Source of the DNA: Candidatus Bathyarchaeia archaeon
GTDB lineage: Archaea; Thermoproteota; Bathyarchaeia; Bathyarchaeales; Bathycorpusculaceae
Assembly (NCBI GenBank): GCA_050012255.1
Contig: JBEKHN010000001.1
Coordinates: forward strand, 96,001-160,000
Reading direction: 5' to 3'
DNA length: 64,000 nt
The position numbers and the translations under genes are program-made. Below, piece by piece: positions 6,765-24,608 of the stretch (position 1 is its first letter; every line of letters begins with the position of its first letter). The notes under the pieces are model-generated. The model saw only the letters and a list, made by a program, of their open reading frames with translations. It made no database searches and had not been told where the DNA came from.

Positions 6765-7625
6765 CTATTTGCGTTTTTCCTTAAGTCTCACTTTAGCTGT
6801 CTTCAGCGCTTTCTCCACTTCTTCTCGTATTATGTAGCCTCCCATGTGAAGTATCGGCTCCTTCGTTTCTGGATCCACTCCCATCGTCGCAGTACACGGG
6901 TAACTGTGATGGGCCTTTGCCGCAACGTCATAGAGTGTGTCCGTTTTCGTTTCGGTTCCTATCAATTTTCTTGCTACGTACCATGTGGAGCCGCATGGAG
7001 CGCTTCGTCTTACAATAGCAGAATCTATCAATTCGTGACCGCCCCTTTTCACAGTTGAAATTTCCAAGGAAGGTCTTCCAACGTTGAGCTCAGTTATGAA
7101 CCTCGATATTGTCGGTGCGCTTGCTGACGGTTTCAGCGAACAGAAGGGCTTTGGAAACGCACTTTCCAAACCTAGTTCTCGACACTTCTCATCCACCTGC
7201 TTTACTAGGCCTGAGGGAACATCCACGAAGTCTTCTATCGGCACGATCAAGCCTTTCACTCCAGCCTTTTCCAAGTGATTTGGCAGTTCAAGCAGCAAAT
7301 CTTTGTGCAAACCTGAGGCAACGCATAAATCAGCTCGAGGAATGTTCTTCGGCATGTGTTTTTCTGGAAAGTCTATGAAAGCTGGAAGATCAGAAGGGTT
7401 CGACAGTTCCACGGCTGCTCGAACGTTGCGAACATGACTGTACACACCGTACTTACAAGAGTCACAGGACAGGTCGCAGGACTTGCAGAAGCTGGGATCA
7501 TTTATCAAATTCCTTATCACTCGCTCTGCAAACTCTCCACTGTAGATGAAGATCAACGCTAATGGTTCTTCTCTGCGACCGGTCTCACGCTCGCTAACTG
7601 AGACCAGCTTACTATGTGCACGCAT
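6765..7625 (-). CDS. DUF166-family protein (true start may be downstream)
   Basis: PKPFCSL, RSAPCGSTWYVA, HHSYPCTA motifs typical of DUF166. Confidence 0.7.
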   Translation of the reverse strand: MRAHSKLVSVSERETGRREEPLALIFIYSGEFAERVIRNLINDPSFCKSCDLSCDSCKYGVYSHVRNVRAAVELSNPSDLPAFIDFPEKHMPKNIPRADLCVASGLHKDLLLELPNHLEKAGVKGLIVPIEDFVDVPSGLVKQVDEKCRELGLESAFPKPFCSLKPSASAPTISRFITELNVGRPSLEISTVKRGGHELIDSAIVRRSAPCGSTWYVARKLIGTETKTDTLYDVAAKAHHSYPCTATMGVDPETKEPILHMGGYIIREEVEKALKTAKVRLKEKRK

Positions 7626-7811
7626 CGGTGTTGTCGCTTCCAGTGATTATTTCCCGTAAAGAAAACGTTGAATTAAGCGTTTCTGAGTAGAGACTTTGCT
7701 TCTGCCAGAAAGAGCTGAGAGGAGAGTTTTCCAAGCTGTAGCTGTATCGTTGAGACATAAAGTTTTAATTTCCCCTAAAACATCAAGACCTAGACTCAGA
7801 AGGTTGTACCG

Positions 7812-10634
7812 TTGGTTACGTTGAACCTGGACAAGATTTTTAATCCCAAGACCATCGCTGTGGTCGGAGCCAGTGATGAAGTGGGCTCTGTTGGATATGC
7901 ACTCATCAAGAATTTTACAGACTTGAAGTTTGAGGGAAAGATTTTCCCAGTCAACCTCCATAAGACCGAGATTCTAGGCCTCAAAGCCTACGAAAGCGTG
8001 GAGCAGATTCCTGAAACAGTTGACCTTGCCGTAATAGCCACTCCTAGCAAGACTGTCCCAGACGTGCTTGAGCAGTGTGGAAAAGCCGGAATAAACGGCG
8101 TAATCATAATTTCAGCGGGCTTCAAAGAGATCGGGCCCGAAGGCAGGGCATTGGAAGACAGGATCACCGAGATCAGGAAGAAATATGGCATGCGGATCGT
8201 GGGGCCCAACTGCCTAGGCGTCATTCGTCCGAGCATCAATCTCAACGCTACTTTCATAAGTAAGATGCCGAAACCAGGCAAAATAGCCTTCATATCACAG
8301 AGCGGTGCATTAGGCTCCGCTATCCTCGACTGGGCGATGCATGAAAACATTGGCTTCAGCAACTTCGTCTCCTTGGGTTCAATGATTGACATCGATTTTG
8401 GTGACCTAATAGACTATTTCGGCACCGACCCTAAGACAAGAAGCATCCTCATGTATATAGAAGGAATAACCGACGCTCGAGGATTCATGAGCGCGGCCAG
8501 ACACTTCGCAAGAACCAAACCGATAATTGTGGTTAAAGCTGGAAAGTTCAGCGAAAGCGCCAAAGCCGCTGCTTCCCACACAGGCTCACTGACGGGTGAG
8601 GACTTGGTATACGACAAGGCGTTCAAGCGTGCCGGAATGGTCCGCGTAGATGACATCGCTGACCTTTTCAACTGTGCCGAAGTCTTGGGCATGCAGCCTC
8701 TACCACAAGGTCCAAACCTTGCCATAATCACAAACGCAGGCGGTCCGGGAGTCATGGCGACCGACGCCCTCATAGCTCGCGGAGGAAAGCTGGCTAAACT
8801 CAGTGAAAAGACAATGGAGAAACTCAACGGCATCTTACCGCACTACTGGAGCAGAGGAAATCCAATCGACATTCTGGGAGACGCCAAGGCTGGCAGGTAC
8901 AGAGCAGTGGTCGAAGCCTGCTTGGATGACGAAAACGTCGACGGCATAGCCATAATATACACTGCTCAAGCAGTTGCTGAACCTGTTGAAGTTGCCAAGA
9001 GCATCGTGGAACTGTGTAAGAGCAGAGGTTCTCTAAACAAGACGGTCTTGACTTCTTTCATGGGTTACGGAGCCGTGGAAGAAGCAAACCGCATATTTCA
9101 CGAGAACAGCATCCCCACATACTCCACACCTGAACAAGCAATCAAAACCTATCACTACATGTACCAGTACAAACGCAACCTAGAGCTCCAGTACGAGACA
9201 CCTGAAGAACTTCCAGTTGACGTTGTCCCGCCGAAGCGGCCACTAATGGCGATAATGAGAAACGTCGCAACCGAGAACCGCGAAACAATGAATGAAGCTG
9301 AAGCCAAGACCTTCTTGGAGTACTACAATCTACCCGTCGTCAAGACAAGAGTTGCCCGAACCGAAGATGAAGCTGCCCTCTTGGCCCAGCAGATAGGCTA
9401 CCCTGTTGTGCTCAAAATCCTCTCCCCCCAGATAGTGCACAAAACGGACGCAGGCGGCGTCGTACTCGACATCAGCAACGAAGCCGAAGTTCGAACCGCT
9501 TTCAACCGTATTATGAAAGCAGCTAGAGAACACAACCCAAACGCCGAGATTCTGGGCGTCACCGTGCAACCCATGGTGAAGAAGCAAGGCTATGAAGTCA
9601 TAATTGGCGCAAAAGCCGACCCCCTGTTCGGTCCTGTGATACTGTTCGGAATGGGAGGCGTCGGCGTCGAACTGTTCAAAGATTTTGCCCTCGGAATTCC
9701 CCCGCTTAATCAAACCCTGGTTCGAAGAATGATGGAGGAGACAAAGGTCTACCAGCTTCTAAGAGATTACAGAAACGTGCCCCCAGCCAACATCAAACTC
9801 CTCGAAGAGATACTCGTGCGTTTCAGCCAGATGCTCGTGGACTTTCCACAGCTCAGGGAAGTTGACATCAATCCGCTGTTCATTAACGAGAAAGAAGCAA
9901 TTGCACTTGACGCCCGCATCGTGATCGACAGGGGCCGCGTCTTCAAGAAGCTTGAGCCTCACGAGCACCTGGTGATAACTCCTTACCCGAAAAAATACGA
10001 AACAATGTGGAAACTTCGAGACGGCCGCACAGTCATTCTGAGACCAATAAAGCCCGAGGACGAACCCTTGTGGCTGGAAATGTTCCAGAACTTTTCAGAA
10101 GAATCGATACGCTACCGCTTCTTCCAAATACTGAAGGACACGCCACACGAGACCAGAGTCCGCTACTGCAACATTGACTACGACAGAGAAATAGCCATAG
10201 TGCCAGAACTAACGGAAGACGGCCGCAGAAAAATTCTCGGAGTCGCAAGGGTCAGCATTGAACCAGACGGGAAAAAAGGCGAAATAGCCTTCATCGTTGC
10301 TGATCCATGGCAAGGTCTCGGCTTGGGCACAAAAATGGTTGATTATGCGCTTGAAATCTGCAAAGACATGAAGGTTGAAACCGTCTACGCCATAATACTT
10401 CCAGACAACTACAGAGCCATCAGCCTCATGAAGAAGATGGGCTTCACGACTGAGTACGCAGATGATGGCACGGTTAAAGCAACACTCAACTTGAGAGAGG
10501 AAGAGCAAGTTCCATGCTCAGAGAGCCAAACCGCCGAGAAGGCACAACAAGAATCTCAGGAACCACCAAGACAGGAACATGCAGAGAGAACTGACGCGTC
10601 ACAAAACGACATCTTGGAAAACGTGGAAACCTAG
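7812..10634 (+). CDS. ADP-forming acyl-CoA synthetase (alpha+beta fused) with C-terminal GNAT domain (Pat-like architecture)
   Basis: IAVVGAS, GPNCLG, SQSGA, ASHTGSL, TNAGGPG, NPIDILGDA, ATP-grasp HKTDAGGV, GNAT WQGLGLG. Confidence 0.9.
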   Translation: MVTLNLDKIFNPKTIAVVGASDEVGSVGYALIKNFTDLKFEGKIFPVNLHKTEILGLKAYESVEQIPETVDLAVIATPSKTVPDVLEQCGKAGINGVIIISAGFKEIGPEGRALEDRITEIRKKYGMRIVGPNCLGVIRPSINLNATFISKMPKPGKIAFISQSGALGSAILDWAMHENIGFSNFVSLGSMIDIDFGDLIDYFGTDPKTRSILMYIEGITDARGFMSAARHFARTKPIIVVKAGKFSESAKAAASHTGSLTGEDLVYDKAFKRAGMVRVDDIADLFNCAEVLGMQPLPQGPNLAIITNAGGPGVMATDALIARGGKLAKLSEKTMEKLNGILPHYWSRGNPIDILGDAKAGRYRAVVEACLDDENVDGIAIIYTAQAVAEPVEVAKSIVELCKSRGSLNKTVLTSFMGYGAVEEANRIFHENSIPTYSTPEQAIKTYHYMYQYKRNLELQYETPEELPVDVVPPKRPLMAIMRNVATENRETMNEAEAKTFLEYYNLPVVKTRVARTEDEAALLAQQIGYPVVLKILSPQIVHKTDAGGVVLDISNEAEVRTAFNRIMKAAREHNPNAEILGVTVQPMVKKQGYEVIIGAKADPLFGPVILFGMGGVGVELFKDFALGIPPLNQTLVRRMMEETKVYQLLRDYRNVPPANIKLLEEILVRFSQMLVDFPQLREVDINPLFINEKEAIALDARIVIDRGRVFKKLEPHEHLVITPYPKKYETMWKLRDGRTVILRPIKPEDEPLWLEMFQNFSEESIRYRFFQILKDTPHETRVRYCNIDYDREIAIVPELTEDGRRKILGVARVSIEPDGKKGEIAFIVADPWQGLGLGTKMVDYALEICKDMKVETVYAIILPDNYRAISLMKKMGFTTEYADDGTVKATLNLREEEQVPCSESQTAEKAQQESQEPPRQEHAERTDASQNDILENVET

Positions 10635-10645
10635 TTTCCCCAAAA

Positions 10646-10903
10646 CTAGTCTTCTTTTGGCAGGCTATAGACGATTTGGTTGTCTCGGTCCCCCGCAATC
10701 TGCACTTTTCCAAACGCTGTCATCGCAATCAGGTGTCTCAAAACCCTCGACTTTTCAATGCCTGTGACCTTTGAAATTTCCTCAACAGTCGATGAGTCGT
10801 GATTCTTCATCGCCTGAACTATTAGGTTTCTCTCCTTGTTGCGCTCCTGCATCTCTTTCGCTTTTTCCGGGCTTATCTTCAGTTTTTCAGACAAGCGTGC
10901 CAC
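10646..10903 (-). CDS. small winged-helix protein
   Basis: STVEEISKVTGIEKSRVLRHLIAM HTH pattern; similar to 20699-21052. Confidence 0.7.
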   Translation of the reverse strand: MARLSEKLKISPEKAKEMQERNKERNLIVQAMKNHDSSTVEEISKVTGIEKSRVLRHLIAMTAFGKVQIAGDRDNQIVYSLPKED

Positions 10904-11122
10904 TTCCCTGAGAAGACTAACTCAGGTCGGCAGGCTGTATATAAAAATGATTCCGATGCGAATCAAAATCGGATGTCCCTTTCTGGCGTGCAGGACATGC
11001 ATACAATTATATCTCAGATTTACGAACATTCAAGAACGGAGACTCTCTTGAGAAAAGATCTGACAGAAGTCAAGTTTGAGGAACTAAGAGGCAAATGCTT
11101 CGAGTTAATCCGCGTAGTCGAA

Positions 11123-11332
11123 ATGCTCTGCGAGGTCTGCCAGAAACCGTTAAGCACCAAAGAAAAACTTCTCAGAAAGGTTCAGATCTCGAGCAGCGAG
11201 GACTATCAGAATCTTTTGGATCGAGCGACCGTTCACGACCGTGCTGAAGTCGATGTGGAAAAGAGCAGAATCTACTTTTACGACCACGACTTTCCCGGAG
11301 ACATACACCCAGAGTGCATAGAAAAACTGTAG
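11123..11332 (+). CDS. small hypothetical protein with CxxC...HxxC (possible Zn-binding)
   Basis: MLCEVCQKPL...IHPECIEKL; ATG at 11123 preferred over the longer ORF start. Confidence 0.5.
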   Translation: MLCEVCQKPLSTKEKLLRKVQISSSEDYQNLLDRATVHDRAEVDVEKSRIYFYDHDFPGDIHPECIEKL

Positions 11333-11466
11333 TCAGGAGAAAGCGTTGCCGTTTGCTCCGCGCGCTAGCGTGTTCCTGAATTCTTTTGGCAAGTAGCTTG
11401 TGCTGCTCATTCTGCTCCTCAACCGTACTTGCCTCATATAGGATACCCGGGGGAAGGGTGTGAGCA

Positions 11467-11586
11467 CGCCCGGACTTAGACCCAAATGGGTTCGAGTCCG
11501 CTGCTTCAAATATCCTGTAACCAGCATTCTCTTCGTCTTAGGCCAACTGGTTCAGAGCTGCCCGTCCCCATACCCAAACGGGTTCA
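11467..11586 (+). repeat. ~120-bp direct repeat, copy 1 (palindrome - 64-nt spacer - palindrome)
   Basis: Near-identical to 17386-17505 with only a few substitutions. Confidence 0.92.
11472..11499. repeat. 28-bp T-arm-like palindrome A
   Basis: GGACTTAGACC-CAAATG-GGTTCGAGTCC. Confidence 0.85.
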
Positions 11587-11591
11587 GGGCC
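11564..11591. repeat. 28-bp T-arm-like palindrome B (degenerate)
   Basis: GTCCCCATACC-CAAACG-GGTTCAGGGCC. Confidence 0.7.
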
Positions 11592-11625
11592 ACCCCTACC
11601 TACGACAAGAACACTATTAAACCGG

Positions 11626-11649
11626 GTTCGAATCTCTCCCGGGCTACCA
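11626..11649 (+). tRNA. tRNA 3' fragment (T-loop to CCA), probably tRNA-Gln-like; att-type remnant, not a full gene
   Basis: G-TTCGAAT-CTCTC-CCGGGCT-A-CCA has canonical spacing; no matching AGCCCGG 5' half upstream. Confidence 0.7.
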
Positions 11650-11913
11650 CTCTCTAGAGTTTGATTATACTAAATTCTGCTGAGGGGTTTCGCTCATTTC
11701 CCCTCTTTTTCTGTTTTTAGGAGACGATCATCCTTGAATGAGTGTAAAGTCGTTCTTGTTTTCAGAAGGTATGAAGAGTTTTGGAGGTTCTGTTTTTCAG
11801 ATTGTAGAGAGTTTAAGGTCGGTTGTGCTGAGTCTTGCAGGTTTAGGAAGGCTCTTGGGATTCTGCCTTTTCGCAAGTCGTGCGCAGGCAAGTTTAAGGG
11901 AGAAGTAAACTAG

Positions 11914-12674
11914 GTGAGAGGGAAGGATCGTTCTTCGGTTTCTGTTGATGGGGACTCTTACTGTAAGAATGGTAATAGTGTCAGCATCAGGCAATCGGTG
12001 TTTGAGAAGCTTGATGAGAATCCTTCGTTGACGGCTAAGAGTCTATGTAAGCTCTTGAATCTGTCTTACTGTAGTTACAGTAACTACTTGGCTAGGCTGA
12101 AGTGTGAGTGGAAGTATTACCGTAGGAATGAGCGGGGTTCAAAGTGTTCAATTCATGCTTGGCGTGGTTGGTGTTATGTGCCTGAGGGTGTGGATAGGGC
12201 TCGGGCTTTGGGTGTTGGGTGGGTTTGTAGTAGGGCTCGGAATCGGTGGTTGTTGTGGAAGGATCGGTTGGGTAGGCTTCAGTGGTTTGAGACGGCAGGG
12301 TTAACTTGTATGTTCGTAGGCCTGCGAATCTTGGGAGTGCCTATCAGTTTGTCTGTAACGGGTTCAGTTTTACTGGTTTGATTACTGAAGTCAAGGTGCT
12401 GGAAGGAGTTTTGGCGGGTGTGAGGTTCAAGGGGGCGCACTATGTTTTTGAAACTGAGCACCGGTTGCCAAGACCTGTTATTGACCTTTTTGCGAAGAGC
12501 AACGGCGTGGTTATCAAGGTTGGAGATGCAAGCCATCCGAATGCGGTTGAGATCGCAACGTGCTATCCGGATTGGGCAGAAAGAAATGAACGGATGTTCG
12601 AGGAGATCAAAGGGCTCTTTCGGAAAGATTTTCATGAGAAAGATTGTTTCAAGAAACCAGATTATGTAACATGA
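11914..12674 (+). pseudogene. frameshifted mobile-element-type protein with N-terminal HTH-like region
   Basis: ORFs 11914-12381 and 12306-12674 join as ...LQWFET-G-RVNLYVRRP... if one base is added near 12295; strong G/T skew. Confidence 0.6.
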
Positions 12675-13141
12675 GGCTTATCTGATGAAGGCGCGCGCTA
12701 GACCAAGAGCTATTCATCCGCATGTCCTTCTTTCATGAGTGTTGCCAAGGTCTCTATTGTCCCTGAGATAGAAGTATAGGCAGAGTCAAGCAATTCTTCG
12801 TGATTTCCTTTTGTCTCTAGAGCCTGTAAGATAGCAAGATCGATAGCCCGCCTGACGCGCGCGTTAGAACCTTTACCTTCTTCCCCAATTCCTCAACGAA
12901 CAAATCCAGAATAGTGCTCTCTGTCGCATGACCTGTAGTCTTGAATGATCCTATACCGAAATCATTCAGTGATTTGTCAGAGGACATACAGAGCCATTTG
13001 ATAGATATAACAAATGGATTTATTTAACAATTGATTCGCCGTCTACCGCATGCCATGAATTGTATGTATCAACCAACATTCAGAGAACGACTATTCAAGA
13101 CACTGAAGCAACCACATGAATATGATCCGGAAGAGAGAATC

Positions 13142-15877
13142 CTAGCGCGCGCTTAGCATGTCGTGTTTTCGACTTGTAAAATGCTTTCCTATTTCCAGAG
13201 AAGCAAATGCAACGGCCATAGAAGCTATCGCTGTGATCCAGTTCATGACTTGTGGGTAAGTTACGTCGAACACGCTTTGGAGTTGGGGCGTATAGAGCAC
13301 GACCAGCGTTGAGCCCAATGAAGAAAGCACTGCCAACCACAAGAACTTGTTCTTGAAGATGCCGACTTTGAAGACTGGATACTTGAGAGAACGGCAACTA
13401 ATGGCGATAGCTAACTCAACTAAAACCACTGAAGTGAACAGCTGAGTGCGCGCTTCGACCAAGTTATGATTCCCTAGCCATGGTTGAAAGTAGAAGTATC
13501 CACCTAAAAGAAGAACAGTTGTTATGATTGGACTCAACACTAAATAGGTCTTGACTTCGCGCGAAAAGACGCTCTCTTTGGGGTCTCTGGGCTTGTTTTT
13601 CATCAAATCTGGATCGCCTGGGTCTACGCCTAGTGCTATCGCGGGCAGTCCATCCGTGGCAAGGTTCACCCAGAGAATTTGGATCGTTGTAAGTGCAACT
13701 GCCGAACGAGGTTCAGGACTGACAAGCATAACGACAGACAATACAAGGATTTCCATGATGTTGCATTGAAGAAGATAGGTCAGGTATTTCTTGATGTTGC
13801 CGTATATTTCGCGTCCTTCTCTGACAGCTTTTACGATGGTTGCAAAGTTGTCGTCTGCCAAGACCATGTCAGAAGCCTCTTTCGTGACTTCTGTTCCAGT
13901 GATTCCCATAGCGACTCCTATGTCTGCAGTTTTGAGTGCTGGCGCGTCGTTTACCCCATCACCGGTCATGGCGACTACATGGCCTTTCGCTTTCCAAGCC
14001 TTTACGATCCTCATCTTATGTTCTGGCGAAACTCGAGCATAGACCACAACATTTTCAACCGTCTCGATCAACTGCTCATCGCTGATCTTTTCAAGTTCTT
14101 CACCAGTAAGAACTCTGCCCTCTGTTTCGTTTTCCTTCAGCAGAGTCAGTGCCTGGGCCACCGCTACTGCAGTCAGTTTGTGATCTCCTGTAATCATGAC
14201 GACCTTGATCCCTGCCTTTTCGCATGAGCTAATTGCATCTTTAACCTCTTCACGCGGGGGATCAATCATTCCCATTATGCCGACGAAGACGAAGTCCTTC
14301 TCGATTTCCTCATCAAATGAGCATGTGTTCTCTTGCAATTCCTTGTAAGCAAAACCCAGATTTCTCAAAGCTTGAGTCGCCATCCCTTCTGTTGCTTGCG
14401 AAAGCTCTTCACGGTCTTTGACAGTCAGTTCTTTGACTTTTCCGTCTTGTAGAATATTGTTGCAGTGCTGCAATACTATTTCCGGAGCTCCTTTCATGTA
14501 GGCCACTTTGCTGTTTCCTGATGTTTGATGAATGGTGGTCATGCGTTTTCTTTCGGAAGAAAATGGAATCTCTCCGATGCGTGGTTCTTTATTCTCAAGT
14601 TCTTCTTTCTGTAGGCCGGCTTTTGCCGCAGCCACGATCAATGCTCCTTCCGTTGGGTCGCCTTTCACAGTCCACTTTGCTTCCTTCGTCTCTAGTCCAG
14701 CGTCATTGCACAATGTCGCAATTGTGAGCAGTGTGTGCAGCCCTTTTAGTTCGATTGGATTTGAAGCTTTCCCTTCAATGAGGAATTTGCCTGTCGGCTC
14801 ATAGCCTACGCCTGTAACCTTCACTGTAATTTGATCGATGAACATGCTCTGAACGGTCATTTCGCCTTTTGTCATGGTTCCAGTTTTGTCAGAGCATATG
14901 ACACTGGTGCACCCGAGGGTTTCAACTGCAGGAAGCTTCCTTACTATCGAATGTTGCTTTGCCATTCGATACATGCCAACAGCAAGTGCTCCTGTTACAA
15001 CTGCAGGTAATGCTTCTGGAACTGCAGCTACTGCGAGGCTTACACCCCACAAGATCATCTCAAGAATTTCATGCTGCTTAATTACACCTAACACGGACAC
15101 AGCAGCGCAGACAGTAATGGCTAGGATTCCAAGCCATTTCCCAACATTTGCCATTCTTTTTTCAAGTGGCGTCTCTTCCTTGTCTGCTGCCTGAACCATT
15201 TTGGCAATTTTCCCAAATTCAGTATTCATGCCAGTCGACGTTACGACGGCTTTGCCTCGCCCATAGGTAACAGTCGTGCCGGTGAAAACAGTGTTTGTTC
15301 TTTCGGAGACAGGTGTTTCTGCAGCCACAGGCTTGGCATCCTTGTTCACGGGCATCGACTCGCCCGTTAAGGCGGCCTCGTCCATTTTCAAGTTCATGAC
15401 CTCGATGAGTCTAGAGTCAGCAGAAACCTTGTCTCCAGTATACAGCAAAAGAATGTCTCCGGGAACGATATCACTTGTTCTTGTTTTGATCTCTTTTCCG
15501 TCTCGCAAAACCGATGCTGTTGGAGCAGTCATTTTCTTCAGTGCCTCTAGAGCCCTTTCTGCTCTGTATTCCTGAGTAAATCCCAAGACTGCAACTGCTA
15601 CGACAATCGCAATTATGACTGTTGCGTCATAAGGTTCGCCTACTGCGAATGATAATGCAGTCGCCACCAGCAATATTATCACTAGCGTGTTTTTGAACTG
15701 CTCAAGGAGAAGCCTTAGTGGGGATTTTCCTTTCTCCTTTTTCAGTTCGTTAGGGCCGAATTCGACAAGACGCTTGATCGCTTCTTCTTGTCCTAGACCA
15801 GTTCTCTTCGAGTTGAGAGCACTCAAAGACTCTTCAATTTCCATTGAATGCCAAGGTTTTGGCGTATTATTCACCAC
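13142..15877 (-). CDS. P2-type cation-transporting ATPase (Ca2+/Na+ class)
   Basis: TGES, PEAL, DKTGT, KGAPE, MITGD, GDGVND motifs. Confidence 0.95.
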   Translation of the reverse strand: MVNNTPKPWHSMEIEESLSALNSKRTGLGQEEAIKRLVEFGPNELKKEKGKSPLRLLLEQFKNTLVIILLVATALSFAVGEPYDATVIIAIVVAVAVLGFTQEYRAERALEALKKMTAPTASVLRDGKEIKTRTSDIVPGDILLLYTGDKVSADSRLIEVMNLKMDEAALTGESMPVNKDAKPVAAETPVSERTNTVFTGTTVTYGRGKAVVTSTGMNTEFGKIAKMVQAADKEETPLEKRMANVGKWLGILAITVCAAVSVLGVIKQHEILEMILWGVSLAVAAVPEALPAVVTGALAVGMYRMAKQHSIVRKLPAVETLGCTSVICSDKTGTMTKGEMTVQSMFIDQITVKVTGVGYEPTGKFLIEGKASNPIELKGLHTLLTIATLCNDAGLETKEAKWTVKGDPTEGALIVAAAKAGLQKEELENKEPRIGEIPFSSERKRMTTIHQTSGNSKVAYMKGAPEIVLQHCNNILQDGKVKELTVKDREELSQATEGMATQALRNLGFAYKELQENTCSFDEEIEKDFVFVGIMGMIDPPREEVKDAISSCEKAGIKVVMITGDHKLTAVAVAQALTLLKENETEGRVLTGEELEKISDEQLIETVENVVVYARVSPEHKMRIVKAWKAKGHVVAMTGDGVNDAPALKTADIGVAMGITGTEVTKEASDMVLADDNFATIVKAVREGREIYGNIKKYLTYLLQCNIMEILVLSVVMLVSPEPRSAVALTTIQILWVNLATDGLPAIALGVDPGDPDLMKNKPRDPKESVFSREVKTYLVLSPIITTVLLLGGYFYFQPWLGNHNLVEARTQLFTSVVLVELAIAISCRSLKYPVFKVGIFKNKFLWLAVLSSLGSTLVVLYTPQLQSVFDVTYPQVMNWITAIASMAVAFASLEIGKHFTSRKHDMLSAR

Positions 15878-16045
15878 ATCGGATGCGCGTCAGCGCGCGA
15901 TCATTTCAGCTTCCTAAACTCTTTCATGCTTAATCAATGTTTAGTGAGACTTCTTGAGCTCGCGCGCTTGTCATAAATTACGAAAATCGCGCGGACAATT
16001 GAAATATGTGATCATGTAACCAGTATTAAGACTGACGTTTGGAAC

Positions 16046-16945
16046 GTGACTGAGAGATTGCAGTCAAGTAGACTTGCCAAGGGTGGAGCCGTTGCGGAAA
16101 AATCTTTTGTGGTTCTGTTGCTAGTGGGTATGGCCGAAGTGTTTATTGGAATATTCTCTTTGAGTCTTGCCCTAGTTGCTGATGGTGTCCAATCCTTTGC
16201 CGATGCTGTTGTTTCGTTGATCGTTTGGGTTGGTTTACGTTTATCAGGAAAAGCGCCAGATGGTAAATTCCATTTCGGGTATTACAGAGTTGAAAACTTC
16301 AGCAGCATTATCGCCGCTTTCGTCTTGACTGTCTCGGGCGGACTGATCCTTTATGAGTCTTACCAGGGGCTGCTTTACCCTAGAGGGATAGTCAATGCAG
16401 AGATAGCTATGGCAACCGCACTCCTAGCAGCCGCTATAGCCGGGGTAATATTGTTCTTCAAAGTTCGCGCTGCCAGAAGATACGATTCTTTAGCGCTCAA
16501 GGCAGACGCGTTCAACTCAACCAAGGACGTGCTCACATCTTTGACAGCCTTTGTGGGCATAGCCTTGAGCAAATACTTGAACATCGGAGTGACAGATTCC
16601 ATTGCCGGAATAATAATCGCCTTCTTCGTTTTCACTGTTGCATACTCAGTGATAAAAGAATCTTCGTTGATCCTGATGGACGCGTGTCAATGTCCTGACA
16701 TCCTGTTGGATATAGAAAGCATAGCAAAAAGTGTCAGGAATGTTAAAGAAGTGCATGACATCCGTATGCGGAAGCTGGGACCCTACTTGGTAGGTGACAT
16801 GCACATTGTCGTTGACGGCGACATGTCGGTGAGAGAGGCCGATCAGATAGCGATACAGATAGAGGAACAAGTGAAGAAAGAGTTCGATGAAGTGACAGAA
16901 ATAAAAGTGAGAATAGAACCACCAAAGCCCTCAACTGGAGAGTGA
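16046..16945 (+). CDS. cation diffusion facilitator (CDF) transporter
   Basis: SLALVADG, PDGKFHFGYYRVE, LKADAF, C-terminal VHDIRMRKLG domain. Confidence 0.9.
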   Translation: MTERLQSSRLAKGGAVAEKSFVVLLLVGMAEVFIGIFSLSLALVADGVQSFADAVVSLIVWVGLRLSGKAPDGKFHFGYYRVENFSSIIAAFVLTVSGGLILYESYQGLLYPRGIVNAEIAMATALLAAAIAGVILFFKVRAARRYDSLALKADAFNSTKDVLTSLTAFVGIALSKYLNIGVTDSIAGIIIAFFVFTVAYSVIKESSLILMDACQCPDILLDIESIAKSVRNVKEVHDIRMRKLGPYLVGDMHIVVDGDMSVREADQIAIQIEEQVKKEFDEVTEIKVRIEPPKPSTGE

Positions 16946-17211
16946 AAACGACGCGCGCATTATCGCGCGCGGCTTTTACAATAAGCTATACGCTGATTTT
17001 CATAGCCTTGTATTCGAGAATGTCGGATATAATGGGTGAGAGTAAAGTGGCAATGACCTGGGCAATAGCTACGTTCAAAGACTTAGGCTATACGATTGGT
17101 CCATTAGTGGCTGGCATGTTGATGGTTTTCATAAACATTCAGAGCACCCTATTTATCACAGGCGCGGCGTTTGTCCTCCTAGTACCAGTTGCTCTTCTCT
17201 TACATGATTGA
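16942..17211 (+). pseudogene. C-terminal fragment of an MFS transporter
   Basis: DLGYTIGPLVAG and the last transmembrane helices of an MFS protein only; begins at a GCGCGC doublet. Confidence 0.65.
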
Positions 17212-17385
17212 TTCTTGTTTTCAAAAGAGTTCTTTGTCCAAGCGCGCGCTTTTTCCCATGAGGCGTTGACGATATATCAAAACGAGGAATTAAACTGTCC
17301 AACCTCGCGAGGCGCGCGCTAAAAACGCAAAACATCTCGGTTGGGCTAATGCCTTGAAGGGTTCAGACTTCTATCGGACTAACAC

Positions 17386-17505
17386 CGCCCGGACTTAGAC
17401 CCAAATGGGTTCGAGTCCAATGCTTCAAACATCCTGTAACCAGCATTCTCTTTGTCTTAGGCCAACTGGTTCAGAGCTGCCCGTCCCCAAACCCAAATGG
17501 GTTCA
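17386..17505 (+). repeat. ~120-bp direct repeat, copy 2 (contains palindromes 17391-17418 and 17483-17510)
   Basis: Matches 11467-11586; same 92-nt palindrome-to-palindrome spacing. Confidence 0.92.
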
Positions 17506-17585
17506 AGACCTAACATTCACACAATGCTTCCGATGCCGAGTTCTCTCCACTTTTTCTAGATTATCAAGCAGGTAGGGGTCGGACC

Positions 17586-17613
17586 GGACTTAACCCCATA
17601 TGGGTGCGAGTCC
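17586..17613. repeat. 28-bp T-arm-like palindrome F
   Basis: GGACTTAACCC-CATATG-GGTGCGAGTCC. Confidence 0.8.
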
Positions 17614-17815
17614 ACTATTGCAGGCGCTTTCGTAGATTGCTAACGTGGGAGAAAAGTGCAATTTAACCTGCATGTTCTGACCATACCAGTAATAAATCTA
17701 ATGTACCACTTTCCCATCTAACAGCACACCTGCAAACAATATCGTGAAATTAGAAGCGCGCGCGATCTAAATGAAAAAAGAAAAAGAGGGGTTCGGCTAC
17801 TCGTAGCGTGTTCTG

Positions 17816-18490
17816 TCAGCGCGTAGGCCTTGACAAAATCTTTCCCATTGCCTCCATTTCTTGCAAAGAGAACCTGTCCCGTCCATGGGACGTGATGAAA
17901 CCAACCAAATCGTTGAAACCTAAGACCTTAACCTTTTCAGTACTCAAGTCCCTTATTCCAAGGAAATTCAAGAAGACCACAACACCTTGAACCCAAAACT
18001 TCCTGTCGCCAAGAACTTTTGAGTCCACAATAGTCTGCCAAACCCACTGGGCATTTCGCTGGGCTTGATCGGTTGGATCGAAATAAAGGCGCGTCCAGTT
18101 CTTGGTTTCAATCGCGAATACAGCGTTGGGCCCCAAGAGAACGTGGTCAATGTTGCGCTTCTTCCCCCAACTGTCAGAATACACCACATCGTTGACTAAG
18201 AAATAGTAATCATCAAGCGAACGCTGAAGAAGTGAAGTAACCTTTTCTTCCCCTTCAACGCCAAGCCTGTAACTTCGATACATCCTCAGAAAAAAGAATA
18301 TGCCCACTGTAGGAAAAACCATACTCAACGCTCGTGCTCCTTCATAAGCGCCCGCGTTAAAATAGAGAGGCATTTTTGGAATCGAAATCAAGACCAAAAT
18401 CGCCAATGCAACAACGCACACAACAAACATGAGCTGGGCAATCTGAACTTTCCGTCTCAGGTGATTGCCAGATTCTTTAACAATATGCAT
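17816..18490 (-). CDS. membrane-anchored NERD (nuclease-related domain) protein
   Basis: Two TM helices, then GVEGE...NIDHVLLGPNAVFAIETKNW...QAQRNA; likely start ATG 18490 (ORF extends to 18715). Confidence 0.85.
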   Translation of the reverse strand: MHIVKESGNHLRRKVQIAQLMFVVCVVALAILVLISIPKMPLYFNAGAYEGARALSMVFPTVGIFFFLRMYRSYRLGVEGEEKVTSLLQRSLDDYYFLVNDVVYSDSWGKKRNIDHVLLGPNAVFAIETKNWTRLYFDPTDQAQRNAQWVWQTIVDSKVLGDRKFWVQGVVVFLNFLGIRDLSTEKVKVLGFNDLVGFITSHGRDRFSLQEMEAMGKILSRPTR

Positions 18491-19044
18491 CCGAGTGACT
18501 ACCTGGTTGATACCGATTAATCCTTCTTGAAAGATGTATATTAGCGCACCCGCGCTCGACCTGAGGAGGTGTCTGTTAGAATAGCGCGCTATTCTAGACC
18601 GCAATGACTGAATGACATCTAGGACAATTCCTAGGATTTCCTTCTGTCTTAAACTCCAGCCCACAGTTCTTACATCTGCAGTTCTTTGCTCTACCATATT
18701 TTCTGTATCTTTCACTCATTCTTTTTCCTTCTTTCTTCTTATTCTAGAAATTGGATGGTTGATTTTCTACTATTATCATAAGTTGTATAACTGTAACCAT
18801 CAACAGCGCGCGCCTATTTTCTTTTTCTGAAACGCGCGCTATTTTTAGGGTCGAGTCCATCGATCGAACTAACTCCAGCCCGCGTGCCATAAGAACAACA
18901 AGAACCCACCAACACTCCATTTTCTTTAACGCGTAAACGCTAAAGCTAAATTAGTTCTATCTGTTGAGGGCGCGCGCGTCTGCCAAGTGTTCTGAAACGT
19001 AATTTTTTTAAGAATGGCGTCATAAATGGAATGGGGAAAAATCC

Positions 19045-19569
19045 TTGACCCGCTGGTTGGAATATAACATTCATTTACGAAGTACATTAACGAATGATGC
19101 CATTTCCGTGCTTGTTGACTTTGTTTATCCATTTATGAGAAATCATGGGGAATATGTTAATTGGCATTATCTTGTTGAGCAAAATGGGTGTCGCTCAACC
19201 CAATTGGAAATAAGATTACGCGTAGAAGGAGCACAAGAATACATCGATACATTTAGACGAGATATGACAACTGAAATCCAAAATTATAGCCAACGTACTA
19301 ACCTCGTTATGAGTGAGAATGACGCATTGGGGTCTCATGAAGGTCTTCATGGAAACCGAACTGGGCATTACCAAGGAGCAGCCTCCGAAAATTTTGGTAG
19401 AGATTGGAATTCTATTGTAGGAATAATGCAAATTGGGTCTGAAAATGCTATTGAGATATTTCGACTAGCACGAGGTTTAGTGGAAAGGCGCTCATTTGAC
19501 GATGGCCCGAGACAGGTTAATCATCCTTATTACCTTCACTTAACCTTCAACCAACTTCTCACTGAATAA
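19045..19569 (+). CDS. stand-alone Lant_dehydr_C (SpaB C-terminal)-like protein
   Basis: W-x-x-Y-x-I start, EIRLRV and terminal LHLTFNQL resemble the RLRV and HxxxNRL motifs of that family. Confidence 0.5.
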   Translation: MTRWLEYNIHLRSTLTNDAISVLVDFVYPFMRNHGEYVNWHYLVEQNGCRSTQLEIRLRVEGAQEYIDTFRRDMTTEIQNYSQRTNLVMSENDALGSHEGLHGNRTGHYQGAASENFGRDWNSIVGIMQIGSENAIEIFRLARGLVERRSFDDGPRQVNHPYYLHLTFNQLLTE

Positions 19570-19617
19570 GTGAGAGGAAACCTACAGAATTGTAAATAAT
19601 ACGTGCTATGAGGTGAT

Positions 19618-20280
19618 CTGACGCAGACGCAAATAACCGAACTAACCAAGACTCTCTTAGATGAGAAGGAAATTGCCGTTGCAGACAGACTTGATTTTCT
19701 AATTGAAAAAGAACCAGAAATGTGGAAGGCTTGGGCGTTACTGGAGCAAGTACTCCCGATATTTTGGATAGTAGAGGGCAAATACCTTCATACTCGTGCG
19801 CCTGTATTTGTTTATCGGACTCTCTACTATCTCAACCACCCCCATGATTTCATCAACGATTCCAGAAAAATGATTCTCATGATGGGAAATCATCTCGAAG
19901 GTCTTTTGGTACATTTGCTTGACTTGCACAATCGACCTCTCGGAGATTTGTCTTATTATTTATCTAAAACTGACCAGACGGAATTATCATCTTCTCTTCT
20001 AAAGTTCAACGAAGTTTATCGGCGAGCAAAACATATGTCTGGAGACCCATTCTTGCCAACGAGATTAGACCAAAGAACTTTCAGTACACGCGAAGCGGTC
20101 TATTGCCTATTTGTCATGAGAAATCTTTCAATCAAGCTTTTTGATTTATTGAAGAAAGCAGGAAAACCTTTGAGCGAAGAATGGAAGCAAATTGACTCTC
20201 AATGGTTTACGTGGGACAGCGAAGAGCCAATTAGCCCCGGAAGGAGAGTTATAGTAAAAAGCCAGCAACCAGAAATCTGA
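19618..20280 (+). CDS. hypothetical protein, possibly HEPN/DUF4145-like
   Basis: Frame is open from CTG 19618 (GAGGTGA just upstream) or ATG 19720; HLEGLL and NEVYRRAKH in a helical-looking protein. Confidence 0.45.
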   Translation: MTQTQITELTKTLLDEKEIAVADRLDFLIEKEPEMWKAWALLEQVLPIFWIVEGKYLHTRAPVFVYRTLYYLNHPHDFINDSRKMILMMGNHLEGLLVHLLDLHNRPLGDLSYYLSKTDQTELSSSLLKFNEVYRRAKHMSGDPFLPTRLDQRTFSTREAVYCLFVMRNLSIKLFDLLKKAGKPLSEEWKQIDSQWFTWDSEEPISPGRRVIVKSQQPEI

Positions 20281-20372
20281 CTTCTTGCCTTCTTCTGAGA
20301 ATCGACCCTGTGAAGGCAAAACGCATTAGAGAACACCTGCAAATAGCGCGCTAAGTGAAAGCGTGGCAGCCC

Positions 20373-20399
20373 GTCCCCATACCAAAAGGGTTAGGGGCC
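20373..20399. repeat. 27-bp T-arm-like palindrome G (degenerate)
   Basis: GTCCCCATACC-AAAAG-GGTTAGGGGCC, preceded by GCAGCCC (GCTGCCC in copies B/E). Confidence 0.7.
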
Positions 20400-20484
20400 T
20401 GACCCTCCTAAGCTGCTTTGAGATTTAGTTCTCTCTTCAGGTTTCGCTTTAGCGCGCGCGTACAAAGCTATAGCAGATGCGCCG

Positions 20485-20512
20485 GGATGTGAACCCAAAA
20501 GGGTTCAAGTCC
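20485..20512. repeat. 28-bp T-arm-like palindrome H
   Basis: GGATGTGAACC-CAAAAG-GGTTCAAGTCC. Confidence 0.85.
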
Positions 20513-20698
20513 CAACCAAAACCGAACTGTGGTGGAGCCCCAAGCACCCACTCGAACCGTGCCAGTAACCATTCCCCATCTGAAAACGCCATGCCTGCCT
20601 CTTCAAGGCTTGTTACCACACAACATTACCACTGACGTTACTTAAAAAGTACGGGGGAGTCAACTTCGAACACTTCACCTACTATATGCGCTAGCGTG

Positions 20699-21052
20699 CT
20701 AAGCTATGCAAGTGTAGAGATATTGCCTGTTCTTTTCTCCAGCTTCCGCGATAACGCCGTTCTTTCTGAGAGCTATAATGTGCTGAACTATCACGCTGGG
20801 CTGAAGCCCAGTTAACTGCGAGATCTCCTCCACCGTAAGCGGGCCTTTTTCCTTGAGGGCACCCTTGATCAGGCTTCTTTCAACCTCATCGTGCATAATC
20901 GAATCCACTGCTTTCTTGTACTTGTCTTCCTCAACTTCCACTTTTATCTGCGATCTTCCCATAACCCACCGCAACCTCTGGGACTTGAAAGCATCTATTG
21001 TCGCGTCAGTCCTTCTCTTCATCTTCTCCTTCTTTTCGCTCATCATTTCCAC
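20699..21052 (-). CDS. winged-helix protein ending the hdr/mvhD operon
   Basis: LTVEEISQLTGLQPSVIVQHIIAL HTH; abuts mvhD. Confidence 0.75.
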   Translation of the reverse strand: MEMMSEKKEKMKRRTDATIDAFKSQRLRWVMGRSQIKVEVEEDKYKKAVDSIMHDEVERSLIKGALKEKGPLTVEEISQLTGLQPSVIVQHIIALRKNGVIAEAGEKNRQYLYTCIA

Positions 21053-21511
21053 CTATTTCGAGTTCCCGGTGACTCGGAAAGGACTGGGCCCCAAGGCCTT
21101 CACCTGCTCCGTCATTTCTCTGATCAGAGCTGCCCACTTTCCTCCCTCACTCGCTGAGACCCACTCGAGCCTTACACGTTCCGATTCAATGCCTATGCTC
21201 TGAACGGCTTTCTTGATGTACTCAAACCTCTTTTCCATCAGGTAGTTGCCCTTTTGGTAGTGGCAGTCACCTGGGTGACAACCAGCGATTATGACTCCGT
21301 CGGCTCCCATGCTCAGTGCTTCCAGCACTAGCGTCGGGTCCATTCTGCCGGTGCACATTACTCGTACGATTCTGATGTTTGTCGGGTATTCGAATCGACT
21401 CGTCCCGGCCAGGTCTGCGCCTGCGTAGGAGCACCAGTTGCAGCAGTAAGCGACGATTACTGGTTCAAACTCCTCCTTCGTCTTCTCTCCAAGAACGTCT
21501 TGTTTCGCCAT
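21053..21511 (-). CDS. mvhD: hydrogenase iron-sulfur subunit MvhD
   Basis: CNWCSYAGAD, MCTGR, GCHPGDCHY, WVSASEG. Confidence 0.95.
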   Translation of the reverse strand: MAKQDVLGEKTKEEFEPVIVAYCCNWCSYAGADLAGTSRFEYPTNIRIVRVMCTGRMDPTLVLEALSMGADGVIIAGCHPGDCHYQKGNYLMEKRFEYIKKAVQSIGIESERVRLEWVSASEGGKWAALIREMTEQVKALGPSPFRVTGNSK

Positions 21512-23302
21512 TTAGGATGCTACCTCCTTTAGGGCCTCAGGCATCAGAAGCGCCTTCACTTGAGCAAGTATCTGATTTTCGCTGAAGTGACGCATCGTTA
21601 TCGCTCGTTTCGGACACTCTGCGGCGCATGAACCGCACCCTCTGCAGAGCACCTCTAGGACTTTTGACTTGCCATCCTGAACCTTGGGCGCTCCGTAGGG
21701 ACAGATCTCCTCGCACAGGCCACACCCGATGCATTGATCCTCGTCCACGACCGCTGTTATCGCCTCCGTTCGAACCTTTCCGTTGCCCATTAAGATTGAC
21801 GCTCTAGCCGCTGCTGCTTCGCCCCCGATTATGCTCTCTGAAACGTCCTTCGGGCCGGAAACGGTGCCCGCGACGAAAACGCCGTCCACGTTCGTGTCCA
21901 CTGGTCTGAGCTTCAAGTGCGCTTCCATCATGAAACCGTCGGTTCCTATCGGGACCTTCAGCATTCTTCCAAGCGTTATCTCATCCTTGTTTGGAATGAG
22001 CGGGGTTGAAAGAACAACCCAGTCTGATGGGAATCTGACCTCAAGGCCGGCCAACGCGTCATAGGCTATTACTGCGAGTTTGCCGCCTGACTCCTGTACA
22101 ACTTCGGGCTTCACCTCTTCAATGTGCCTCACAAACCTCACTTCAAGATCTCTTGCCTTCCGATAGAAGTCTTCGTATTCCTTGTAGACTCTTAGGTCTC
22201 CAAAGAGCACGACAACGTCTGTCTTGGGTGACTTTTCTTTCACAAGTATAGCGTTCTTTATGGCGTTCATGCAGCAGATTCTTGAACAGTAGGGCCATCC
22301 TTCCTCCTTTCGTGCCTTGAGGATCTTTCTGAGAAGCTCGGCTGTGTCTGATTTTGGAAAGGCCTCAAGCTCGGACGGTCGGATTTCACCTTTCCTTGCT
22401 CCAACGCATTGTATCATCACGACTCTTTCCGGCGTCCCAAGCTCGTCTTTTCTCAGCATCCCGTCGAGTTCTCTCTGTGTTATCACGTGGTCGCTCACGC
22501 CATACTGGTAGAAGCCGTTCGGAGGTGTGTAGTTAGAGGAGCCGGAGGCCACTATTATCGTGCCAACTTTAACTTCCGCATCACCTTTCGGGCCTGTCAG
22601 GACAGCGTTGAAGTTTCCAACGTAGCCGCTGACGTCCTTGAGGGTTGTTGACGTCATGAGTTCAATGTTCTCGTGAGACTTCACGGCTTTCACCATGGGT
22701 CCGACAACTTCGGAGGAATCTTCCAGTGTTGGGTACAGTTTGTAAAGCCAACGTGTAATCCCGCCTGGTTCCTTCTCCTTCTCGGCCAAGTACACCTTGA
22801 AGCCCTGGTTTGCCATGGAAATCGCTGCTGATAACCCAGCCACTCCCGCTCCGATCACGAGCGAAACATCCTTAACCTCAACTTCCGGTTCAGTCTCAGG
22901 CTCAAGCAGAGCAGCTTTTGCCACAGCCATCCTGACGATGTCCTTGGCCTTTTCTGTCGCTTTCTGATGCTCATGCCCGTGCACCCAGCTGACATGTTCG
23001 CGGAGGTTGGCCATTTCGAACAGGTATGGGTTCAAGCCTCCCTCCCTGCAGCAAGCCCGGAACAAGGGCTCGTGCGTTCTCGGCGTGCAGGATGCGACAA
23101 CAACACGGTTCAGACCGTGCTCCTTGATTGCTTCTTTTATGGCGTCCAACCCAGCTTCTGAGCACGTGTAGAGGTTGTACTCGGCGTGAGCTACATTCCG
23201 AAGTTTCTTCGCGTACGCAGTGACTTCTGGAACGTTGACTACACCGCCGATGTTGACTCCGCAGCTGCAGATGAAGACGCCTACGCGTGGTTCTTCCGTC
23301 AT
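21512..23302 (-). CDS. hdrA: heterodisulfide reductase A-like, second module
   Basis: VFICSCG, CTPRTHE, GAGVAG FAD motif, QCVGAR, CSRICC, EAHLKLRP, C-terminal 2[4Fe-4S]. Confidence 0.92.
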   Translation of the reverse strand: MTEEPRVGVFICSCGVNIGGVVNVPEVTAYAKKLRNVAHAEYNLYTCSEAGLDAIKEAIKEHGLNRVVVASCTPRTHEPLFRACCREGGLNPYLFEMANLREHVSWVHGHEHQKATEKAKDIVRMAVAKAALLEPETEPEVEVKDVSLVIGAGVAGLSAAISMANQGFKVYLAEKEKEPGGITRWLYKLYPTLEDSSEVVGPMVKAVKSHENIELMTSTTLKDVSGYVGNFNAVLTGPKGDAEVKVGTIIVASGSSNYTPPNGFYQYGVSDHVITQRELDGMLRKDELGTPERVVMIQCVGARKGEIRPSELEAFPKSDTAELLRKILKARKEEGWPYCSRICCMNAIKNAILVKEKSPKTDVVVLFGDLRVYKEYEDFYRKARDLEVRFVRHIEEVKPEVVQESGGKLAVIAYDALAGLEVRFPSDWVVLSTPLIPNKDEITLGRMLKVPIGTDGFMMEAHLKLRPVDTNVDGVFVAGTVSGPKDVSESIIGGEAAAARASILMGNGKVRTEAITAVVDEDQCIGCGLCEEICPYGAPKVQDGKSKVLEVLCRGCGSCAAECPKRAITMRHFSENQILAQVKALLMPEALKEVAS

Positions 23303-24607: not shown

Positions 24608-24608
24608 A

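Follow-up and report, generated by a model that had tools for sequence, protein, structure and literature searches.

The DNA studied here, positions 96001-160000 of contig C1 of a Bathyarchaeia genome (G000; 2.35 Mb in 38 contigs, 98.5% complete), is a stretch of 64,000 nucleotides (nt) that we call the window. It contains an island of 9,072 bp in which seven related palindromic sites accompany genes for a P-type ATPase, a CDF transporter, a NERD protein and four open reading frames (ORFs) without a family. The palindromes are probably parts of the attachment (att) sites of small integrative elements that target transfer RNA (tRNA) genes, lack an integrase of their own and belong to a Bathyarchaeia-like lineage, a reading to which we assign a probability of roughly 0.6. 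For comparison 40 relatives were scanned, 10 of them congeners, including the complete genome G001 and the genome G007. The sites and the boundaries of the island are as follows.

11353-11469, + strand: left half of R, a repeat resembling a miniature inverted-repeat transposable element (MITE), with terminal inverted repeats ending in GCGCGC; target split by the island, the orthologous copy being intact in G001 and G007
11470-20541, + strand: inserted island, 9,072 bp; empty site in G001 and G007; no target duplication
11472-11499, + strand: type-A palindrome of the tRNA-Val(CAC) type, with left arm GGACTTAGACCC, spacer AAAT and the constant right arm; 2 nt inside the left end of the island
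11488-11575, + strand: module M, about 88 nt, spanning the right arm of palindrome A, the left arm of palindrome B and the DNA between them; putative P arm of an attP
11564-11591, + strand: type-B palindrome, weak; left arm and 7-nt flank similar to the end of a tRNA-Pro in reverse complement
17241-17390, + strand: putative P' arm of an attP-like region, with a (GC)4 run at its start and palindrome A2 at its end; 92% identical to contig C7 of G007 as part of 17162-17409
17391-17418, + strand: type-A palindrome (A2) at the inner joint of the island, followed by a second copy of module M
17483-17510, + strand: second copy of the type-B palindrome
17586-17613, + strand: palindrome with a differing left arm; flank like the end of tRNA-Val(GAC/TAC), judged by eye
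20373-20399, + strand: type-B-like palindrome of 27 nt, one left-arm base missing, between two (GC)n runs
20485-20512, + strand: palindrome, 29 nt inside the right end of the island
20530-20541, - strand: last 12 nt of the island, a 7-nt acceptor-like strand, discriminator and CCA, with the same TGG geometry as 31 of 111 sites
20542-20606, + strand: right half of MITE R, starting directly after the island

All seven sites, which an earlier note on this DNA had placed correctly together with their start-to-start spacings of 92, 92, 103 and 112 nt, follow one plan: a left arm of 12 nt, a spacer of 4 nt (AAAY, once ATAT) and a right arm of 12 nt. In 62 sites, which come from many genomes, the right arm hardly departs from GGGTTCRAGTCC, and the left arm varies widely; the 744 pair cells of these sites comprise 535 Watson-Crick, 59 G-T, 76 A-C and 74 other pairs. 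Allowing two mismatches, the right-arm 12-mer matches 23 times in the window against a mean of 8.98 in shuffled sequence, and none of 100 shuffles reached 23. A covariance model was trained on 13 sites of G000 (the seven of the window and six on contigs C3, C4, C25 and C34), in which pairing amounts to 82.6% and both pairing and covariation exceed the shuffle control. It returned exactly seven sites in the window, all on the + strand and all within 11464-20520. The type-B sites at 11564, 17483 and 20373 are weak palindromes, with 7-8 Watson-Crick pairs out of 12, and their kinship to the others is mainly one of sequence; full tRNA-Pro-type versions of the type-B site, complete with CCA, are found at loci L056 and L080. 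The right flank of the site at 17586-17613 is 80% like the right flank of a site in G003. A unit of 125 nt (11467-11591) is repeated at 17386-17510 with 94-95% identity.

The resemblance of the arms to the T-arm of tRNAs, pointed out in the earlier note, is genuine and reaches further than the palindrome. Reverse-complemented, the left arm and its 5' flank give the T-loop, the 3' strand of the T-stem, the 3' strand of the acceptor, the discriminator and CCA of various tRNAs. When the 18-nt flanks of 111 oriented, non-redundant sites from all loci were compared with the 45 tRNAs that ARAGORN predicts in G000, a tRNA 3' end was matched exactly over 10 nt or more by 39 of the 111 left flanks, 3 of the 111 right flanks and 1 of 111 shuffled left flanks. 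The matched tRNA genes number 12 and cover 8 amino acids. The trinucleotide TGG, the reversed CCA, occupies positions -14 to -12 in 31 of the 111 sites, versus one at the mirror position. Identity to the tRNA ends at the CCA, that is at the end of the gene, as in an att site that targets tRNA genes, and the DNA beyond it is unlike the native downstream sequence of the tRNA gene; this is the look of an attP core and not of a displaced fragment at its native locus. The matches and the limit at the CCA bear out the suggestion that the sites are derived from tRNAs. They are neither tRNA genes nor members of a known RNA family: ARAGORN predicts no tRNA gene in the window, and Rfam gives no match there at the gathering score and just three chance-level matches at E<=10 in 11300-20700. 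A tRNA-like processing element or a split or permuted tRNA was considered and rejected by eye, as the T-loop part of the left arm is invalid and an acceptor 5' strand is absent.

The junctions at tRNA-Val(CAC) give these sites their anatomy. A comparison of the downstream flanks of tRNA genes with the flanks of the sites yielded one match, the type-A site of G007. There the site is followed by native tRNA-Val(CAC) downstream DNA, 91% identical to G000 over 1.67 kb (attR), while the body of the tRNA lies on a separate contig (C7), where the DNA at its 3' end is 92% identical to window 17162-17409 (the attL side). In G001 an insert of 3,535 bp (L123:1441-4975), absent from G000, separates a type-A site from tRNA-Val(CAC) and has 17 tRNA-end bases at both borders. 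In G000 this tRNA gene is unoccupied. The comparison of G001 with G000, and the attR and attL of G007, thus reveal an insertion polymorphism with a direct repeat of the core and a restored tRNA. The type-A site at 11472-11499 aligns with the attR junctions of both congeners. In an alignment of the attB, two attR, two attL and the two type-A sites of the window, the shared core measures 17-18 nt and takes in the first five bases of the left arm; what remains of that arm is element DNA, as are the spacer and the constant arm. Because the core is bounded in this alignment by arms that the element owns, window 17241-17510 may be regarded as an attP-like region, composed of a P' arm (93% identical to C25:121-299 of G000), the core, and A-M-B as the P arm. 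The earlier note had expected crossover in a 6-bp spacer; at the tRNA-Val junctions the exchange falls within the tRNA-identical core, which ends inside the left arm.

The island itself lies elsewhere. G001 (96%) and G007 (93%) match window 7000-11469 and 20542-25000 contiguously and have an intact MITE R at this place, from which it follows that 11470-20541 was inserted, without target duplication. Its GC content is 45.4%, versus 49.5% and 50.8% in the flanks. The split repeat R is about 205 nt long, with inverted ends of about 28 nt that contain GCGCGC, and is present in at least 19 full copies in G000 (e.g. C5:80384-80586). Copies are also numerous in G001 and G007, and several contigs end inside one. 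The window island occupies a pseudo-site and has no direct repeat of a core. By our reading, 10 nt of the tRNA-Val(CAC) T-loop region recur exactly, in reverse complement, at 20550-20559, starting 8 nt rightward of the insertion point; we take this 10-mer for a decoy that made R a pseudo-attB, which would explain integration at a secondary site. On the - strand the last 12 nt of the island and its first bases comprise a T-loop-like part, T-stem, acceptor, discriminator and CCA in the register of the full sites. If joined, the ends of the island would therefore form a core like a tRNA 3' end beside palindrome A, that is, an attP-like junction. Since the 125-nt unit is repeated and the P' arm is homologous to the tRNA-Val flank of G007, the island probably consists of two tandem integrase-less elements, E1 (about 11470-17387) and E2 (about 17388-20541). 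The idea that the sites delimit DNA holds in so far as they stand at the ends and at the inner joint of an insertion that two congeners lack; exchange of the three cassettes named in the earlier note was not seen.

A second island of G000, C4:16349-23378 (7.0 kb; locus L002 covers part of it), is likewise absent from G001 and G007. It lies about 115 nt downstream of tRNA-Cys and replaces 60-80 nt.

The conserved part of the element extends beyond the palindrome. Module M is 92-97% identical in 11 copies from G000, G001, G003 and G007, and both outer flanks of these copies differ. A 38-nt piece of it was found in 11 metagenome stretches with varied left flanks; in 10 of the 11 a palindrome is present at the type-A position just upstream, and 8 have the type-A left arm. 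The flanks of 57 sites were compared pairwise and without gaps. Where one flank was at least 75% identical (65 site pairs), the other was at most 57% identical in all 65, although one of these pairs is actually homologous on both sides with an offset of 1 nt. The sites are thus breakpoints of homology in every comparison made. The breakpoints are of two kinds, one 0-7 nt 5' of the left arm and the other close to the palindrome centre. A big array in G001 starts 2 nt from a type-A site, where homology to contig C5 of G000 begins; its flank is a repeat, so the place was not counted as an independent empty site.

The earlier note had seen no copies outside the island. This applies to the window but not to the genome, which has about eight further sites: the six mentioned above, and C14:62399 and C20:3596 from the scan, with C21:26614 as a weak match (E 0.09). 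Most of the palindromes outside the window are on short contigs of low GC content (C14, C20, C21, C25 and C34; 44.5-46.8% versus about 48%), which suggests that these contigs are poorly assembled accessory regions. Among the 40 relatives, 16 have matches to the covariance model at E<=0.01, including 7 of the 10 congeners. An exact pattern scan of one genome per prokaryote species gave 68 stretches, 65 of which are titled as metagenome-assembled genomes (MAGs) of Bathyarchaeia, Bathyarchaeota or Bathyarchaeales. The same pattern had no match in a collection of viral contigs, and a viral origin of the sites was rejected on this ground.

These data suggest the following mechanism. The core would be copied from the last 17 nt or so of a tRNA gene (the 3' strand of the T-stem, the 3' strand of the acceptor and often CCA), reversed on the + strand of the window. 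Beside it the P arm of the element would begin, with the 4-nt spacer and the constant T-arm-like 12-mer; the site looks palindromic because this 12-mer is an inverted repeat of the T-loop part of the core. A recombinase encoded elsewhere, for which a tyrosine integrase from the host or a helper element is the likeliest candidate, would exchange strands inside the tRNA-identical core, and the constant arm may serve as its protein-binding site. The point of entry would be either the 3' end of the cognate tRNA gene or the att site of an element already in place, and the latter route would give rise to tandem arrays. The type-A site of the window would stem from elements that target tRNA-Val(CAC), and the island would occupy a secondary site, a MITE copy with a 10-nt look-alike of the tRNA-Val T-loop region.

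A broader proposal, which we put forward tentatively and think somewhat doubtful in its full extent, is that Bathyarchaeia possess a lineage-wide family of integrase-less cargo cassettes. Their modular attP would combine a tRNA-end core with the inverted T-arm arm, which is constant, and with conserved flanking arms, A-M-B being one example. The core would have diversified to at least 8 tRNA isotypes. A recombinase acting in trans, either chromosomal or from a helper, would move the cassettes, which would build up into co-oriented arrays.

The statement that no recombinase is encoded here was confirmed: PF00589 has no match in the window and 14 matches elsewhere in G000. As no recombinase gene lies near the sites, action in trans is the sole option if the sites are active. 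A recurrent neighbour was not apparent either: of the families formed by the 570 ORFs that lie no more than 2.5 kb from a site, the largest is represented at 6 loci, and no candidate enzyme came to light. An integrase 2 kb from a site in G007 was tried as the enzyme of the sites and rejected. It belongs to a separate element of 8 kb (L046:763-8825, on contig C1 of G007), which has its own 22-nt direct repeat, lies 1.65 kb downstream of tRNA-Val, is absent from G000 and is unrelated to the palindromes. A 'suicidal' integrase of the SSV type, with the attP inside its gene, was likewise dropped, because in our reading of the frames no long open frame runs across M or the sites.

Several observations weigh against the proposal of tRNA-targeting att sites. 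Neither the window island nor the G001 element contains an integrase gene, PF00589 has no match near the G001 insert, and in G001 no integrase lies within 30 kb of any site. A hidden Markov model (HMM) trained solely on the integrases of G000, which other kinds of integrase could escape, matched 2 ORFs in 689,908 bases of site-bearing loci, versus 13 in the genome of 2.35 Mb, so that there is no enrichment; one of the two is the integrase of the 8-kb element just described. The same model had no match in the 101,836 bases of the 11 metagenome stretches with module M. At the junctions of the island in R, as we read them, only about 1 nt of identity is shared, and when aligned on the T-loop look-alike they are offset by 4 nt, a poor fit to a conservative exchange by a tyrosine recombinase. 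The acceptor sequence at the end of the island is carried by no tRNA of G000. Given the two positions of the breakpoints, a single fixed crossover point is not established. The borders of the second island on C4, which contains two palindromes and a copy of R, are at GCGCG motifs and not at the sites. No contig joining 20541 to 11470, and no other excision product or circle, was found among the Logan contigs of four runs, which are assembled contigs and not raw reads. One contig of run X1 joins 11469 to 20582; with 21 letters on its shorter side it is indistinguishable from another copy of R and was not counted as excision. In other runs joints and loose ends fall at palindrome edges, but these are short contigs from other organisms and were given little weight. 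Finally, runs of (GC)3 or more are concentrated in the island (20 in its 9 kb, all between 12691 and 20459, versus 14 in the remaining 55 kb of the window), and across the genome GCGCGC, with 1,353 occurrences where 474 are expected, is about 2.9-fold in excess.

These runs are central to the view that the palindromes are inert or selfish repeats, either relics of old integrations or sequences like repetitive extragenic palindromes (REPs) or MITEs, and that the (GC)3-4 motifs and their transposase are the true borders. We consider this unlikely. (GC)n runs do border MITE R, the C4 island and a 140-nt element described below, truncate several palindromes and mark breakpoints at other loci; 20 of the 111 sites have a run no more than 40 nt to their right, versus a background of 1.8%, and the lack of a recombinase linked to the sites would be expected of inert repeats. 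On the other hand, 87 of the 111 sites have no such run within 40 nt. The ends of the island are not at (GC)n runs but at a palindrome and a CCA-bearing tRNA-like end that fit together, the tRNA-Val element of G001 has a classical att repeat of 17 nt, and the conservation of right arm and spacer over about 110 sites in many MAGs, while the flanks differ, argues for constraint. The (GC)n runs may belong to a second, unrelated mobile system, as the ends or targets of a transposon family. Single-strand transposition by an HUH enzyme, as in IS200/IS605, with subterminal hairpins on one strand, a transposase acting in trans, cuts near the feet of the hairpins and no target duplication, is very improbable. 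The island indeed lacks a target duplication and has hairpins on the same strand 2 nt and 29 nt from its ends, in line with such elements, but the Y1 HUH transposase (PF01797) was not found in the 98.5%-complete G000, whereas control genomes gave matches. Nor are G-T pairs in excess over A-C pairs (59 versus 76 of 744), so that folding of one strand is not indicated, and the identity to tRNA ends, the CCA and the 17-nt repeat at tRNA-Val would go unexplained. Because of the missing Y1 gene, and because the palindromes do not alternate, the sites also differ from REPs and bacterial interspersed mosaic elements (BIMEs) with their REP-associated tyrosine transposases (RAYTs). Least probable of all is that the sites are transcribed RNA hairpins, whether terminators, processing signals or tRNA-like punctuation between accessory genes. 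They are intergenic and mostly at gene 3' ends, 17380-17520 folds somewhat better than shuffled sequence (z -2.2 on the + strand, -3.4 on the - strand), and the pairing and covariation of the 13 G000 sites would agree with a structured RNA. However, the blank results of ARAGORN and of Rfam, and the lack of a G-U excess for either strand over the 62 sites, led us to drop this reading; in addition, right arms in the sequences read are not followed by a T run, type-B sites pair poorly, and an RNA model leaves the insertion polymorphisms unexplained.

Exchange of single cassettes as in integrons or pdif modules, with the palindrome as an 11-6-11 core site whose two arms are bound by a tyrosine recombinase, Xer-type or other, and whose spacer is the place of crossover, was the interpretation of the earlier note and seems improbable to us, by a shade more so than inert repeats. 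In integrons the attC sites have R and L boxes and a GTTRRRY core, and the cassettes stand in one orientation. The arrays studied here are similar in that imperfect, mostly co-oriented palindromes lie between diverse accessory genes (orientation is uniform in 11 of the 13 loci with at least two sites by the covariance model, though in merely 14 of 20 by the looser pattern scan), and integrons have been reported in Archaea, as far as the accessible part of that report goes (bioRxiv 10.1101/2022.02.06.479319). Other observations that would suit such exchange are breakpoints at the centre of the palindrome (in L021:9603 versus L019:13615, in L004:2978 versus L027:1658, and in all type-B sites), the extent of module M from one right arm to the next left arm, and half-sites with the right arm alone (L021:5826 and L033). 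The sites differ from those of integrons, however, in being derived from tRNAs and in having neither IntI nor attI nor an attC-type core; genes lie on both strands, those for the ATPase and the NERD protein on the - strand and the others on the + strand, and crossover is in the tRNA core and not in the attC R-box. Membership of the integrons, for which PF00589 is missing both from the window and from the 30 kb around the G001 sites, can thus be set aside. Bacterial pdif modules and other elements that exploit Xer have dif-like 11-6-11 sites in alternating, inverted orientation. The present sites share with them a length of 28 bp that can be divided as 11-6-11, the presence of many copies around accessory modules and a recombinase that would act in trans. 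Unlike pdif sites they are mostly co-oriented, seven out of seven in the window being on the + strand, and their arms are unequal; a variable, tRNA-specific left arm opposite a constant right arm is not what is expected of two arms bound by one dimer. Moreover, the left junction of the island is 2 nt outside the palindrome and not in the spacer, and in the two junction pairs at tRNA-Val the spacer and right arm stay with the element. For archaeal XerA and dif we refer to PMC8371274, which covers them in the part available. What stands of the earlier interpretation is the derivation from tRNAs, the bounding of insertions and action in trans, while spacer crossover, membership of the integron or pdif systems and cassette swapping fall away.

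The att-site reading is best placed among the elements that resemble it. Integrative elements reportedly target the 3' ends of tRNA genes by means of tyrosine integrases (work attributed to Reiter 1989 and Williams 2002). The elements described here agree with them in the tRNA-3'-end core, the direct repeat of the core at both ends, the restored tRNA and the variety of tRNAs targeted. Integration at tRNA 3' ends and the resulting displaced tRNA fragments are well known, judging from the accessible parts of PMC8371274, PMC9897764 and PMC3293823, the first of which also describes, in the same portion, archaeal plasmid families whose related integrases switch among many tRNA targets. Unlike those elements, the ones described here have no integrase within them or near their sites, the core is always joined to an inverted T-arm-like 12-mer to give the 12-4-12 palindrome, and sites occur in arrays without a nearby tRNA gene and inside a MITE. 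Streptococcus is said to harbour cis-mobilisable elements (CIMEs), integrase-less islands flanked by att sites that spread by accretion and mobilisation. Like CIMEs and the 'hitchers' of PMC11389934 (again in its accessible part), the present elements carry att-bounded cargo without a recombinase, and they would build up in tandem at a resident att site and depend on a helper. They differ from both in being archaeal and just 3-6 kb long, in that the helper was not found, and in sharing the A-M-B arm across genomes.

The cargo of the two putative elements, from ORF prediction and Pfam, NCBIfam and PADLOC searches, and one further feature of the island are listed below.

11626-11650, + strand: 3' fragment of tRNA-Gln with CCA; the fragment and about 207 following nt (232 nt) recur at C5:57286-57515
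11914-17211, mixed strands: E1 cargo
11914-12381, + strand: ORF without a family, E1
13142-15877, - strand: P-type cation ATPase, E1
16046-16945, + strand: CDF efflux gene, E1
16942-17211, + strand: small ORF, E1
17816-20280, mixed strands: E2 cargo
17816-18715, - strand: NERD-domain protein, E2
19045-19569, + strand: ORF without a family match, E2
19720-20280, + strand: ORF without a family match, E2

The last two ORFs had been labelled Lant_dehydr_C and HEPN-like; at E<=0.01 neither has a match in Pfam, NCBIfam or PADLOC, and the label was not reproduced. No close copy of the island genes was found among the ten congeners, the ATPase matching other genomic places at merely 66-69% identity. 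Nearly every gene of the island is flanked by (GC)3-4 runs. A stretch of 140 nt (18594-18733) that overlaps the predicted N-terminus of the NERD protein and is bordered by GCGCGC is 98-99% identical to copies in G004, G008 (three copies) and G009; by comparison, the G004 and G009 versions of a conserved gene next to the island are only about 77% identical to that of the window. The stretch is likely to be either a MITE that has spread recently or the gene of a small RNA.

No integrase turned up in the G001 insert, whose genes are for a radical-SAM/SPASM/PqqD protein, a protein of 565 aa that has no family, and a small Zn-ribbon protein. The radical-SAM gene adjoins that of the 565-aa protein, and a homologue of it stands beside the palindrome at C25:2407 of G000. 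This cargo looks like a peptide-maturase set.

The tRNA-Gln fragment in the island appears to be the remnant of a separate att family. Such 3' fragments were found at four places in G000: window 11626-11857 and C5:57286-57515, which share downstream DNA, and C6:4352-4368 and C8:38252-38268, of 17 nt each. The two short ones are less than 1 kb from long integrase genes (C6:4694-5224 and C8:37409-37654). Taken together, these fragments would represent a second, classical integrase/att family in this genome.

Literature searches returned no description of sites of this kind, although the integration-site tables of PMC8371274 and PMC9897764 might list cases from Bathyarchaeia. In the part available of one paper on a Bathyarchaeia genome (PMC11697101), repeats, transposases and mobile elements go unmentioned and an integrase is named within a provirus only. 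New here are the fixed pairing of a tRNA core with an inverted, constant T-arm arm, the elements without an integrase, and the arrays without a tRNA gene.

The literature says little about how Bathyarchaeia, a group of abundant, uncultured archaea, acquire genes. If the reading as tRNA-targeting att sites holds, a tRNA-end core joined to the GGGTTCRAGTCC arm would be a signature of accessory DNA and of insertion points in these genomes, and small cargo elements could spread without an integrase of their own. Genes for metal-ion transport, a NERD nuclease-like gene and a set for radical-SAM peptide maturation are among the cargo to date. Window 17241-17510 versus tRNA-Val(CAC) provides a concrete substrate in the hunt for the recombinase. 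Should the broader proposal of a lineage-wide cassette family also be true, these elements would form an archaeal, tRNA-based counterpart of gene capture by integrons or CIMEs, in which the T-arm palindrome is the shared handle that allows one recombinase to serve many targets.

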